Assembly: GCA_017608305.1 (NCBI GenBank)
Contig: JAFCGC010000001.1
Span: 38,744-102,743, forward strand
From: Candidatus Pacearchaeota archaeon
GTDB taxonomy: Archaea; Nanobdellota; Nanobdellia; Pacearchaeales; GW2011-AR1
Direction of reading: 5' to 3'
Length of the DNA: 64,000 nucleotides
Shown: positions 44,668-51,900 of the stretch, piece after piece
Position numbering within the stretch: the stretch's first letter is position 1
Layout: each line of letters starts with the position of its first letter
The notes under the pieces: model-generated
Told to the model about the DNA's origin: nothing
Seen by the model: only the letters and a program-made list of their open reading frames with translations
Databases searched by the model: none
Made by a program: the position numbers and the translations under genes

Positions 44668-45426
44668 TTGGACAGAGAAAAAACTATGACAAAAAATATA
44701 ATTGAACTCAAGGGAGCAGCAAGATACTATGAGATGGGTGAAGAAATAATCAAGGCTCTTAATTGTGTAGACATAGCTATTGCAGAAGGGGATTTTGTTG
44801 CTATTATGGGTCCAAGTGGAAGCGGAAAATCAACATCTATGAATCTTACAGGAAGTTTAGATCTTCCTACTAAAGGAGAAATTTATTTATCTGGAGAAAA
44901 TATAGCTCATTTAGAAGAATCTGAATTAGCTCAACTTAGGGGAAAGAAAATAGGATTTATATTTCAACAATTTAATTTAATTCCTAATTTAACAGCTAAA
45001 GAAAATGTCATGCTTCCTATGTTATTTCAAGGGGTTGAGAAAGAAGATAGACAAGAAAGAGCTGAAAAACTTTTGAAAGGAGTTGATTTAGGGGATAGAA
45101 TGGATTTTTACCCTAATCAATTATCAGGGGGGCAACAACAAAGAGTTGCCATTGCAAGGGCTTTGGCAAATAAACCAGAGATTATTTTAGCAGATGAACC
45201 AACAGGAAATCTAGATACAAAAACAGGCAATAGAGTCATGACTTTCTTACAACAACTTAATGAAAAAGGCAGGACAATTATTATTGTTACGCATGATTCT
45301 GAAATTGCAAGAGAATATGCAAAGACAATTTATTCTATAAGAGATGGGAAAATAGAAAATCTTGAAAAAAAAGTCAAAGGGAAATGGAAAAACCAAAAAA
45401 CTTCTGCTTACAAGGTTGATAAATGA
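44668..45426 (+). CDS. ABC transporter ATP-binding protein (MacB/LolD-type)
   Basis: Walker A 'GPSGSGKST', signature 'LSGGQQQRVAIARAL' and Walker B 'ILADEPTGNLD'. Confidence 0.85.
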   Translation: MDREKTMTKNIIELKGAARYYEMGEEIIKALNCVDIAIAEGDFVAIMGPSGSGKSTSMNLTGSLDLPTKGEIYLSGENIAHLEESELAQLRGKKIGFIFQQFNLIPNLTAKENVMLPMLFQGVEKEDRQERAEKLLKGVDLGDRMDFYPNQLSGGQQQRVAIARALANKPEIILADEPTGNLDTKTGNRVMTFLQQLNEKGRTIIIVTHDSEIAREYAKTIYSIRDGKIENLEKKVKGKWKNQKTSAYKVDK

Positions 45427-45508
45427 AATATGCTAATTGTTGTAATCATTCAGAAGTAACAATATCGAAATATTTAAAAACCTTCCTTATGTGAAAAATT
45501 AAAGGAAA

Positions 45509-46381
45509 ATGATGAATAAAATAATACCAATAATCGCACTGATGTTTTTAATGAGCATTAGTTTTGCGAGTGCTCTTATTGTTGATGCAGATTATGTGAC
45601 ACTTTATGCTGGAGAGGAAAAAACAGTTAAAATTAATGTTGACAATAATGAAGATTTTGATATGGAGGATGTTTCTATTCAATTAAGTACTTTCATTGAG
45701 CTTCCGGGTGGAACACCAATAAGTCTTCCTTTTACCATAATTGGAAGTTCTGAAAAAGATTTAGATGATCTTGATGAAGATGATGATGACAGTGCGAGTT
45801 TTAAAATAAAAGCTTCAACAAACATTATCCCTGGAGATTATCAAATACCTTATGAAGTAAAATATACTAATGTTGATGAAGATGAAAAAGAAGACAAAAA
45901 AGGAACATTTGGGATTAGAGTTAGTGCAAAAACAGAACTTGATTTTGGAGTAGAAGTAAGAGATAATGCGATTGTTGGTCAAGAAGGAAGAGTTTCTTTA
46001 GAAATAATTAATAAGGGTCTTGGAGATATTAAGTCAGTTAGTGTTCAAGTTTTTCCTCAGGGTTTTGAATTATTGTCAAAAGGCAAAATATTTATCGGAA
46101 CAGTTAATTCAGATGATTCGGATATTGCGACATTTGATGTAATCTATCAAGATGCAAATCCTACACTTTCAGCTAAAATGACTTATAAAGATTTTGATAA
46201 TCAAGAACACACAGAAACAATTAATTTAAAATTCAAAGTTTATACTAGAGAACAAGCTTTAGAACTTGGAATAATTAAGAAAAGCAACACAGGAGTTTAT
46301 ATTAGTGTTGTGGTTGTTTTAATTGTTGCTTGGATAATTTATAGAAAGATTAAAAAGAAAAGGAAAAATAAAAGAAAATGA
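45509..46381 (+). CDS. Secreted/surface protein with N-terminal signal peptide and C-terminal TM anchor
   Basis: 'MMNKIIPIIALMFLMSISFASA' and 'VYISVVVVLIVAWIIYRKIKKKRK'. Acidic central region. Confidence 0.45.
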   Translation: MMNKIIPIIALMFLMSISFASALIVDADYVTLYAGEEKTVKINVDNNEDFDMEDVSIQLSTFIELPGGTPISLPFTIIGSSEKDLDDLDEDDDDSASFKIKASTNIIPGDYQIPYEVKYTNVDEDEKEDKKGTFGIRVSAKTELDFGVEVRDNAIVGQEGRVSLEIINKGLGDIKSVSVQVFPQGFELLSKGKIFIGTVNSDDSDIATFDVIYQDANPTLSAKMTYKDFDNQEHTETINLKFKVYTREQALELGIIKKSNTGVYISVVVVLIVAWIIYRKIKKKRKNKRK

Positions 46382-49275: not shown

Positions 49276-50354
49276 AGATGGGAATTATGAAAGAAATAAT
49301 TAATGCTTATAGTGTAGATAAAGTTAGTGAAACTTATGAGGGAACTGTAGAAATTACAGATTTAAAAAAAGAACTTGGAACAAAAGGCCATGTTTTAGTA
49401 GTTAGGGGAGATAAAGCCTATGCCGATAAATTAGGGGGAAACAAAGATTTGGCAAATCCAAAATTTTGGATGTATGAGAATTTGATAAAAACCCCTAGAA
49501 TTCAGGAAGCATTAAACCAGAATCCAAATCATAAATTATTTGATGGTGTCGGATTTTCAGCACTAGACGCCTTAGGGTTTCATTCAGGAAAATTAGGAAG
49601 AAAGGCTGTTGCAGTTATGGCCCGGGAACACATCCCGGACAAAGAAGTATTTGAGAGATATCCTATTGAAGTGATCCATGGAGAAGGTTTGGGAGAAGAA
49701 GGTTATGTGGATAAGCAAGCAGAAGTTCTTTCTTCTAGAAATGATTTAATTCCTTTCCACCAAGCATTATATGGTGCCCAAGCTTTGGCCCCAATCGGAA
49801 ACAAAGTTGTTAATAAACTTGAGGAATTATCTATTAAACCTGATGAAACATATTGGTGTATTGCGAGTGGGTCAAATTTATATGGAATTGGACATAAAAT
49901 AAAACAAAAATTTTCTGATTGTAGTACTTTTGTTGTTGAACCTAAAATTAATATGACAGTAGATTCAAAAATAGACTTAACAAATTCTTCACAAATTAAA
50001 TCTTTTGCTAAAAATAAATTAAGAAATTATTCTTTAAAAAATTGGAACAAACATTATGCGGTGGCCCCTCTTCATGCTGCTGGGCCAAGTAGGTATTTGT
50101 TGCTTTTATGGGCAAACACAGGAAAAATAGGATTTGATAAAGTAATGCATCTTCCTTCAAAAGATTTTATTAATACAAAAAAGAAATTACAAGAATTAAA
50201 TTCTGATTATAATTGGACTAAAACAACTGCGCTTACTATTTATCCTGCCATTGAATCTGCAAAAAGAGGGAAGAATGTTGTAGTAATGGCTTATGGGAAG
50301 CATAGGGAGCATAATCTAAAAGATCTTATTATAAATGGAGAAATTAAAAAATGA
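49272..50354 (+). CDS. Hypothetical soluble enzyme (weak resemblance to PLP fold-type II / ACC-deaminase-like)
   Basis: 'FHSGKLGRKAVAV' and 'GSNLYGIGH'. Low certainty. Confidence 0.2.
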   Translation: MKMGIMKEIINAYSVDKVSETYEGTVEITDLKKELGTKGHVLVVRGDKAYADKLGGNKDLANPKFWMYENLIKTPRIQEALNQNPNHKLFDGVGFSALDALGFHSGKLGRKAVAVMAREHIPDKEVFERYPIEVIHGEGLGEEGYVDKQAEVLSSRNDLIPFHQALYGAQALAPIGNKVVNKLEELSIKPDETYWCIASGSNLYGIGHKIKQKFSDCSTFVVEPKINMTVDSKIDLTNSSQIKSFAKNKLRNYSLKNWNKHYAVAPLHAAGPSRYLLLLWANTGKIGFDKVMHLPSKDFINTKKKLQELNSDYNWTKTTALTIYPAIESAKRGKNVVVMAYGKHREHNLKDLIINGEIKK

Positions 50355-50695
50355 AATATAAACAAACTTCAAAAAAATATTTTAATAGTCAAGGGCAAAC
50401 AATAGATTATCTTGTTCATGAACACCAATACGATCGTTTTATTGCATGGAAGAAAGTTAATTTATTTAAAAAACAATATGATCATGCAATTAATTCTGGT
50501 TATGGTGCAGAATATGTTATAGAAGTTTTTGAGAAAAAAAGATTTGATTCTAAAAAAATCAAAATAGATCTAGAATTTTCTGGAAAAAACCTTACTCCAG
50601 AAGAAAATATAAGATTAGAACACACTCATCAAAATTTAGATAAACCCACACTAAAAAAATTAATTGAATTAAAAGTAGGGAAAAATAAAAAATGA
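50351..50695 (+). CDS. Hypothetical protein
   Basis: ORF translationally coupled between the two permease genes. Confidence 0.3.
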   Translation: MKYKQTSKKYFNSQGQTIDYLVHEHQYDRFIAWKKVNLFKKQYDHAINSGYGAEYVIEVFEKKRFDSKKIKIDLEFSGKNLTPEENIRLEHTHQNLDKPTLKKLIELKVGKNKK

Positions 50696-51900
50696 TATCA
50701 GACTATTTCACATTAGCAATTAGAAACTTGAAAAATAGAAAGTTAAGAACACTCTTAACCATGTTAGGAATTTTTGTAGCTATTGCGACAATATTCATGC
50801 TTGTTAGTTTATCCTTGGGCTTGCAAAATGCAGTTAAAGAACAATTTGAGTTGCTTGGTGCAGATAAATTTTTTGTGCAGCCTGCAACAGGATTTTTAGG
50901 TCCTCCTGGAAGTGTTGGAGGAGTTCTTTTAACAGAAGATGATGTTGAAACAATAAAAAAAGTTAGAGGAGTAAAACAAGTCTCTTATTATCTTGCTGGA
51001 AATGCTAAGCTAGAGTTTGGAGACAAAACAAGATACTCTCTTGTTTGGGGGGTTTCTACAGACACAGATCTTTATATTGAAACAGGAAGTCTTGAAGTAG
51101 AAGATGGAAGATTTATCCAAGAAGGAGATTCTGGAATTGTTATTGGTAATTTATACAAGACAGGAAATACTTTAGGAAAACAAGTTAGAGTTGGAAATAA
51201 AATAACAATTAATGATCAAGATTTCAAGGTAAAAGGAATTTTAAAACTCATAGGAAATCCAGATGATGATAGAATAATTATTATGGATATAGGGGTAGCA
51301 AGAAATTTATTTAATGAACCAGAAAGAGTGGATTGGATTGTTGTTCAAGTCGATGAAGGGGAAGATGTTAAAGAAGTTGCGCAAAGAGTCGAGGAAAAAT
51401 TAAGAAAAGCAAGAGGCGTTACTGAAAAAACTCAAGACTTTGGCATAATGACTCCTGAAGAACTTTTAGAAAGTTTTGGGAATATACTTAATATTGTTAC
51501 TAGTTTTTTAGCAGGTGTTGCGGCTATTTCTCTAATTGTTGGGGGAATTGGAATTGCAAACACAATGTACACTTCTGTGATTGAAAGAACAAGTGAAATA
51601 GGGGTAATGAAAGCTATTGGTGCACAAAATAAAGATGTTTTAATGATCTTTTTAATTGAGTCTGGACTATTGGGTCTTGTAGGGGCTATAATTGGGGTTG
51701 GTCTGGGTTTTGGAGTCAGTAAATTAATTGAATTTATTGCAATTAATCAATTAGGAACAACCCTTTTACAAGCAGCTGCACCTGCATATTTAATTTTTGG
51801 TTGTTTAGGTTTTGGTTTTATTATTGGGGCTGTTTCCGGAGTTCTTCCGGCAATGCAGGCAAGTAAAACAAATGTAGTGGACGCTTTACGTTATGAGTAA
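50692..51900 (+). CDS. ABC transporter permease, MacB/FtsX family (paralog)
   Basis: 'GIANTMYTSVIERTSEIGVMKAIGA'. Same architecture as 48040..49275. Confidence 0.8.
   Translation: MISDYFTLAIRNLKNRKLRTLLTMLGIFVAIATIFMLVSLSLGLQNAVKEQFELLGADKFFVQPATGFLGPPGSVGGVLLTEDDVETIKKVRGVKQVSYYLAGNAKLEFGDKTRYSLVWGVSTDTDLYIETGSLEVEDGRFIQEGDSGIVIGNLYKTGNTLGKQVRVGNKITINDQDFKVKGILKLIGNPDDDRIIIMDIGVARNLFNEPERVDWIVVQVDEGEDVKEVAQRVEEKLRKARGVTEKTQDFGIMTPEELLESFGNILNIVTSFLAGVAAISLIVGGIGIANTMYTSVIERTSEIGVMKAIGAQNKDVLMIFLIESGLLGLVGAIIGVGLGFGVSKLIEFIAINQLGTTLLQAAAPAYLIFGCLGFGFIIGAVSGVLPAMQASKTNVVDALRYE

Follow-up and report, generated by a model that had tools for sequence, protein, structure and literature searches.

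A 64,000-nt stretch of a contig from a Candidatus Pacearchaeota archaeon (JAFCGC010000001.1; hereafter the window) carries a run of eleven genes that encodes an ATP-binding cassette (ABC) system of the MacB/FtsX type together with seven further proteins. The conserved unit in this run comprises four genes and not eleven, namely those for an ABC ATPase, a surface protein with an NPCBM_assoc/NEW3 domain (the NEW3 protein) and two permeases, FtsX1 and FtsX2. Outside the conserved set stand the small genes s107, s106 and par1-3, located after the NEW3 gene and before FtsX1, and the genes e360 and s114, located between the two permease genes. On balance, the run is probably an ordinary type VII ABC cassette that carries lineage-specific operon passengers, which are neither cargo of the transporter nor conserved components of it.

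A scan with FtsX1 over one genome per species yielded 80 loci, nearly all from metagenome-assembled genomes (MAGs) of DPANN archaea, on which the window proteins were mapped by tblastn (E ≤ 1e-2) and by local HMM and phmmer searches; a local search covered 84 related loci. In the great majority of the 80 loci, the ATPase, NEW3 and two FtsX genes are contiguous and stand in this order, and the NEW3 gene immediately precedes the permease genes in 70 mapped cassettes; the NEW3 protein is a conserved partner of the cassette. The window keeps the same order and orientation, though interrupted. A sequence-only reading of this DNA had raised the question whether the gene set recurs as a cassette in other DPANN archaea. 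It does so for the four-gene core (contiguous in most of 83 DPANN loci related to the window), but not for the embedded genes: s107, s106, par1-3, s114 and e360 had no match in any of the 80 FtsX1 loci by tblastn or HMM/phmmer. A search of the literature on an archaeal ATPase-NEW3-FtsX-FtsX cassette returned nothing relevant. The cassette is among the best-conserved envelope systems of the DPANN archaea, which live attached to hosts and rely on them for lipids, and the window is one more example of it, with no new mechanism.

The assignment of the core as a MacB/FtsX-type ABC system, already made from the letters alone, was borne out by Pfam, NCBIfam, solved relatives in the PDB and the four-helix topology of the permeases, and the host is a DPANN-like archaeon. 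The ATPase matched PF00005 (E 7.6e-34, Pfam), and its best NCBIfam matches were the MacB N-terminal region, DarD, LolD and FtsE (E 1e-78 to 1e-66). Its best solved relative was M. jannaschii MJ0796, matched over the full length (E 8e-73), with MacB and LolD following among the top PDB matches. FtsX1 contains a MacB_PCD domain (PF12704, E 1.9e-23, residues 25-245) and an FtsX domain (PF02687, E 6.3e-20, residues 286-404); FtsX2, which is 43% identical to FtsX1, matched the MacB NCBIfam model at E 1.8e-38 and the LolCE model at E 4e-21. The permease's best solved relatives were MacB (E 1e-31), 5xu1 (E 1e-29) and YtrF (E 2e-22). By hydropathy, FtsX1 has a first transmembrane (TM) helix at residues ~27-45, a loop of ~230 residues and TM2-4 at ~275-395, and FtsX2 has the same layout. 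A type VII permease spans the membrane with four TM helices and bears a large extracytoplasmic domain after TM1 and before TM2 (PMC5985334), and by hydropathy both proteins have this layout; likewise, the operon encodes a cognate ATPase of the MacB/LolD/FtsE clade, as in the type VII ABC superfamily. The 290-aa NEW3 protein scored 27.1 bits with PF10633, against a gathering cutoff of 24.4, and has a beta-sandwich-type region and an acidic DLDDLDEDDDD stretch. Its description as a signal-peptide/C-anchor protein agrees with the hydrophobic segments that we found, a signal-like one at the N-terminus (residues 5-23) and a C-terminal TM segment (263-281) followed by a basic tail.

None of the six embedded small proteins had a significant match in Pfam, NCBIfam, PHROGs, PADLOC, PDB or IMG/VR, in agreement with the sequence-only reading, which had placed them in no recognisable family, and all six were singletons in a clustering at 90% identity. 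Four of the six are basic (isoelectric points of 9.1 for s107, 9.8 for s106 and 9.6 for s114), and none of the seven embedded proteins has a hydrophobic segment, a signal peptide or a TM helix. These properties bear on the proposal that the co-encoded small proteins are the cargo or the partners of the system. As cargo, they would be exported peptides, toxins or surface factors of a MacB-type transporter. Their encoding next to an exporter-type ABC system fits this idea, and tandem, fast-diverging paralogs recall the diversification of a secreted effector or bacteriocin family. However, the six small proteins lack any signal peptide or hydrophobic segment, the ABC proteins lack a C39 peptidase domain, most cassettes (including the 80 loci above) are without such genes, and unrelated inserts occupy the same junctions in relatives. 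Moreover, type VII ABC machines work on extracytoplasmic or membrane substrates, and the MacB-type permeases, whose substrates are periplasmic or membrane-borne, have no transmembrane substrate channel (PMC5985334). Given the missing channel in MacB-type machines and the missing export signals in the small proteins, we regard a cargo role as hardly credible. The part of the proposal that names partners fared better, since the orthologs of par and s114 in L093 and L096, the closest two of the relatives sampled, were found only in the cassette and at the same junctions. We also considered the N-terminus of the par proteins (S-L-D-E-L....G) as a double-glycine leader, which it loosely resembles, and rejected it: a Gly-Gly pair is not conserved, the residue after the Gly being R, K or N and the Gly itself being replaced by R in the relative P0084, and there is no C39 peptidase domain.

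The three tandem paralogs noted at the outset proved to be genuine but weak ones, with 26% identity and the common motifs KINSLDEL..G.KV and PSDP.Y; par1 matched the profile at E 1e-35 in the local search. A full HMMER search with the par profile against 1.84 billion representatives returned, beyond the window proteins themselves, only P0084 (E 7e-6) and P0085 (E 2e-5), and superseded a word-index search with the paralog alignment that had given the three window proteins only. A third candidate, P0086, was judged spurious; this 2103-aa protein with Fn3-like repeats aligns with profile positions 4-31 only. A metagenome scan with the three-sequence par alignment added one further contig, whose gene map and match identities are the same as those of L093. 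P0084 (from L093) and P0085 (from L096) are single-copy genes, both placed between the NEW3 gene and FtsX1. Over their full length they are 31-33% identical to par3, which is the orthologous copy in the window. An AlphaFold model of par3 built from five sequences reached a pLDDT of 49.5 and was unusable for a fold search. We did not count as homology a C-terminal '..E(R/K)..SGR/SWR' motif that is shared by par3, P0084, P0085 and an unrelated ORF of L021. The codons for this motif in the window (tgg agg taa) coincide with the GGAGG Shine-Dalgarno sequence that serves FtsX1, the next gene; we assume the same origin in the other loci. The protein s114 also has an ortholog, a 100-aa gene of L093 (12377-12679) in the same slot upstream of FtsX2, with 28-31% identity over ~100 aa and the shared motifs KKYFN and H.HQNL. 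Two taxon-restricted small-protein families were found only inside the cassette.

Such linkage suggests another explanation, by which the ABC machine has cytoplasmic accessory subunits or regulators in the par proteins and s114, and perhaps also in s107 and s106. These might act on the ATPase, or on the cytoplasmic helices of FtsX1 and FtsX2, respectively, and would be made in a fixed ratio with the permease that follows. All known homologs of par (P0084 and P0085) and of s114 (the L093 gene) sit in the cassette and at the same junction; par3, P0085 and both s114 orthologs are immediately upstream of, and coupled to, the following permease gene; and the intact ORFs with conserved terminal motifs at ~30% identity imply selection. 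In contrast, par and s114 are missing from ~70 other cassettes, including those of equally close relatives (L013-L020, 62-71% core identity). In L093, a 264-aa helix-turn-helix (HTH) gene separates P0084 from FtsX1, and in L096 the s114 slot holds an unrelated 170-aa gene. To our knowledge of the family, moreover, small soluble cytoplasmic subunits have not been characterised in any type VII ABC system (PMC5985334). Finally, descent alone can account for the linkage of par and s114 to the cassette, since the three carriers (the window, L093 and L096) fall into a single subclade when a neighbour-joining tree is built from FtsX1 and FtsX2. Taken together, we consider the accessory-subunit explanation unlikely, albeit a serious contender.

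The comparison of the three carriers also indicates how these genes evolve. The core proteins of the L093 and L096 loci are 62-81% identical to those of the window; specifically, the ATPase is 80-81% identical in L093, and in both loci the NEW3 protein is 62-65% and FtsX2 75-77% identical. Because the small proteins retain only ~30% identity in the same loci, they are conserved but evolve much faster than the core. L093 shares the rpoN-to-ribosomal-protein synteny with the window, the gene order being kept from secDF to rpS9, and nearly all differences in gene content within this 18-kb syntenic block fall in or next to the cassette. The L096 contig is 4.8 kb long and holds little beyond the cassette.

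Inserted genes are uncommon at the cassette junctions. A census based on ORF boundaries counted inserts with an ORF of 50 aa or more at only 7 of 57 ATPase/NEW3, 8 of 70 NEW3/FtsX and 7 of 69 FtsX/FtsX junctions (10-12%), and the window, with seven inserted genes and 3.07 kb, is the extreme of this distribution. The inserts are diverse and bear no relation to those of the window. The NEW3/FtsX1 junction of L013 carries a 143-aa double-HTH protein that is related to the C-terminus of the 264-aa helix-hairpin-helix/HTH protein of L093; orphans of 108, 155, 113 and 124 aa occupy junctions in L015, L018 and L019; L057 has a lipoprotein-like 115-aa ORF; and the inserts of L018 and L021 share one family. 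A pair of genes for a winged-HTH nucleotidyltransferase and a HEPN protein, which is a toxin-antitoxin-like module, occurs in two unrelated MAGs, at the FtsX/FtsX junction of L055 (4389-5559) and at the NEW3/FtsX junction of L075 (8879-10004). The cassette junctions appear to be permissive insertion sites.

The inserts might themselves be remnants of mobile or selfish elements (viral, plasmid or toxin-antitoxin) that target the junctions or are tolerated there, with ORFs that serve defence, anti-defence or addiction. The HEPN and nucleotidyltransferase pair in L055 and L075 and the multi-HTH proteins at the NEW3/FtsX1 junction of L013 and L093 are in keeping with this origin, as are the intein that interrupts the ATPase gene of L020 and the free-standing LAGLIDADG ORF ~0.8 kb upstream of the window operon. 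But the small ORFs of the window gave no matches in PHROGs, PADLOC or IMG/VR, their borders show no integrase, repeat or tRNA, their GC content is like that of the flanks, and all inserts are translationally coupled and in the orientation of the operon. We thus consider a mobile-element origin very unlikely. A combined reading, in which par and s114 are accessory subunits that are each coupled to 'its' permease and the junctions are preferred sites for the capture or birth of fast-evolving genes recruited to the transporter, seems to us quite unlikely.

The gene e360 belongs to a conserved DPANN family. We found 80 homologs (38-69% identity), all from DPANN-type sources, and in six of six distinct genomic contexts (L002-L012) they have no adjacent ABC or FtsX genes. 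Because its homologs sit in six contexts without ABC neighbours, e360 is an independent gene; only in the window genome does it lie inside the cassette, between FtsX1 and s114. An e360-family gene lies within ~3-5 kb of a gene for a phosphoenolpyruvate (PEP)-utilising enzyme (PPDK_N and PEP-utilizers domains; PEP synthase/pyruvate phosphate dikinase type) in three of the six contexts (L004, L005, L006, L007), which may be a weak functional neighbourhood for the family.

The structural prediction for e360 was confident. The AlphaFold 2 model (pLDDT 92.1, pTM 0.91) gave 505 PDB matches at E ≤ 1e-3 in Foldseek, headed by CysK, cystathionine beta-synthase (CBS), beta-cyanoalanine synthase and TdcB, with a best E of 2e-15, TM-scores of 0.60-0.66 over ~335 columns and 12-18% identity. 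Likewise, a profile of 29 homologs found cysteine synthase in the PDB (E 8e-6) over the pyridoxal phosphate (PLP) phosphate-loop region. In the same 29 homologs, K62 is invariant within a conserved 'NPK' motif and is a candidate counterpart of the Schiff-base lysine; also invariant are A196/G198...G203/G205 of a glycine-rich loop, 'ASGSN..G.G', whose counterpart in the alignment with cysteine synthase is the GTGG loop. The whole protein scored 14.5 bits with Pfam PALP (PF00291), against a cutoff of 35, and some homologs carry a precomputed PF00291 match. In its model, e360 has the two-domain tryptophan-synthase-beta-like fold of the O-acetylserine sulfhydrylase/CBS family, and in place of the substrate-binding 'TSGNTG' loop of CysK its family appears to have an invariant 'DGVGFS'. 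These results point to a divergent fold-type-II PLP-enzyme-like protein with a CysK/CBS-like fold and to a conserved family of at least 80 DPANN CysK-like PLP-fold proteins with an altered substrate loop.

Eleven consecutive, abutting or overlapping plus-strand ORFs fill positions 44686-51900 (44668-51900 in the mechanical ORF list), so that the co-directional, overlapping eleven-gene order described from the letters is present in full. The spacing from gene to gene is -8 to +5 nt, except that 82 nt separate the ATPase gene from the NEW3 gene, and several starts are preceded by GGAGG-like Shine-Dalgarno sequences; by spacing and overlaps the set looks like one compact transcription unit, as the sequence-only reading had assumed. 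Some ORFs of the mechanical list probably begin too early, and the likely starts at 44686, 47016, 47389, 48055 and 49278 match the gene calls of the public contig (Table 1). In both insert blocks, 99% of the length is taken up by ORFs of 90 aa or more, a coverage equalled in none of 1000 dinucleotide-preserving shuffles (mean 0.3-0.5%, maximum 23-48%). Because the shuffles never reached this coverage, the small inserted ORFs are most probably real coding genes. No tRNA or Rfam RNA was found inside the operon region, and its GC content is ~30%, the inserts being like the flanks. A TTTATAAAA element lies ~45 nt upstream of the ATG at 44686 and a T-rich stretch follows FtsX2; at 30% GC, both are weak evidence.

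Table 1. Genes of the interrupted cassette in the window, with positions numbered from the first letter of the window
Gene or product	Position	Strand	Basis and remarks
ABC ATPase, MacB/LolD/FtsE type	44686..45426	+	PF00005; mechanical ORF from TTG 44668, likely start ATG 44686
NEW3-type surface protein, 290 aa	45509..46381	+	PF10633, hydropathy
s107, 107-aa basic cytoplasmic orphan ORF	46378..46701	+	4-nt overlap of its start with the NEW3 stop
s106, 106-aa basic cytoplasmic orphan ORF	46694..47014	+	8-nt overlap; GGAGG Shine-Dalgarno
par1, first paralog, 123 aa	47016..47387	+	Alignments, public gene call; mechanical ORF from 46998
par2, second paralog, 95 aa	47389..47676	+	Alignments, public gene call; likely start ATG 47389; GGAGG Shine-Dalgarno
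par3, third paralog, 123 aa	47678..48049	+	Orthologous to P0084 (L093) and P0085 (L096)
FtsX/MacB-type permease 1 (FtsX1)	48055..49275	+	PF12704, PF02687; GGAGGT 8 nt upstream of ATG 48055
e360, PLP-enzyme-like protein, 358 aa from the likely start	49278..50354	+	Homologs, AlphaFold 2, Foldseek
s114, 114-aa basic cytoplasmic protein	50351..50695	+	4-nt overlaps with the genes on both sides
FtsX/MacB-type permease 2 (FtsX2)	50692..51900	+	MacB/LolCE NCBIfam models; likely heterodimer partner of FtsX1

In the reading that we favour, an ordinary cassette with passengers, the two permeases would probably form a LolCE-like heterodimer powered by two copies of the single ATPase. By analogy with the family (PMC5985334, PMC8333309, PMC12646458), ATP-driven motion would be passed to the extracytoplasmic domains by mechanotransmission, and these would act at the outer face of the membrane on an envelope substrate, most likely together with the NEW3 protein, which is the candidate partner because ~70 cassettes encode it. 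The NEW3/FtsX1 junction would have been filled by s107, s106 and three tandem par copies, and the FtsX1/FtsX2 junction by the relocated, otherwise independent e360 and the taxon-restricted s114. All of the inserted soluble cytoplasmic proteins would be made from genes that ride on the transcription and translational coupling of the operon. Presumably, a single gain brought par and s114 into the small subclade before its members diverged, and both have since evolved approximately twofold faster than the core. The insertion of e360, the duplications of par and the genes s107 and s106 would be specific to the lineage of the window. If so, tight co-direction and the overlap of starts and stops in streamlined archaeal genomes need not indicate functional linkage: in this lineage alone, the operon encloses several orphans along with a gene for a housekeeping PLP-fold enzyme.

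Several points weigh against the passenger reading. Both par and s114 were found only inside the cassette, and their slots and coupling have been kept while the core diverged by ~27%; a genuine accessory subunit would look alike. With only three genomes, all of one subclade, descent and function are inseparable. The concentration of gene-content changes at the junctions could mean that genes are recruited there for a function, and not just that insertions are tolerated. Lastly, s107 and s106 had no homolog in the 84 related loci or in IMG/VR, and no valid whole-database search was made for s107, s106 or s114.

Further observations concern the surroundings of the operon and the cassettes of relatives. 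The window operon is flanked by rpoN upstream and by the genes for L21e, S13, S4, S11 and RpoD downstream. Together with the GC content and the nearest relatives, these flanks assign the window to a DPANN archaeon of a Pacearchaeota/Woesearchaeota-like kind. Between FtsX2 and the L21e gene lies a gene for a 65-aa, Cys-rich (CxxC...CxxC) zinc-ribbon-like protein without a family (52025-52222, plus strand), which is 72% identical in L093. The free-standing LAGLIDADG ORF mentioned above (222 aa, LAGLIDADG_3, E 2.5e-12; 43233-43901, minus strand) abuts the 5S rRNA gene (43119-43234, plus strand) and is absent from the syntenic locus of L093. Also missing from L093 is a 230-aa ORF (55705-56397, plus strand) that follows a tRNA-Leu(CAA) gene (55577-55660) and is bordered by rpoD and the L18e/L13/S9 genes; its sole match, to a nucleotidyltransferase (PolyA_pol head), is weak, and it looks like another lineage-specific insertion in a conserved operon, here beside a tRNA. 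Among the relatives, the ATPase ortholog of L020, a Nanoarchaeota MAG, is 755 aa long (6749-9016), and its Walker A motif reads GPSGSGKC and is then followed by an intein-like insert; the P-loop of this MacB-type ATPase seems to host an intein. A protein of ~390-400 aa without a Pfam family is encoded directly after FtsX2 in L093 (13921-15084) and L018 (4286-5494), with 30% identity over 416 aa, and is absent from the window.

Among characterised systems, the closest solved relative of the ATPase is MJ0796 (PDB 1F3O, 1L2T), a LolD-like archaeal protein. Only the isolated ATPase has been studied, and it gives no functional transfer. The permeases share MacB_PCD and FtsX domains and the 4-TM topology with MacB of MacAB-TolC and with the Gram-positive MacB-like Spr0694-0695 and YtrEF. 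In contrast to MacB, however, the ATPase of the operon is unfused, the permeases are encoded by two distinct genes instead of forming a homodimer, and there is no TolC; neither the ORF list nor Pfam revealed a HlyD/MacA-type adaptor gene in the operon, and scores of 265 and 132 bits lie below the MacB equivalog cutoff of 966. LolCDE, which releases lipoproteins in E. coli, resembles the operon in having one ATPase gene and a pair of paralogous permeases, each with four TM segments and an extracytoplasmic domain of the MacB_PCD type; the LolD model matches the ATPase at E 1e-68 and the LolCE model matches FtsX2 at E 4e-21. These scores are far below the equivalog cutoffs (LolD, 231 bits versus 308; LolCE, 75 bits versus 362), and the gene order is unlike that of LolCDE. 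Furthermore, the present host is an archaeon without an outer membrane, LolA or LolB, and the partner encoded in its operon is a membrane-anchored NEW3 beta-sandwich protein.

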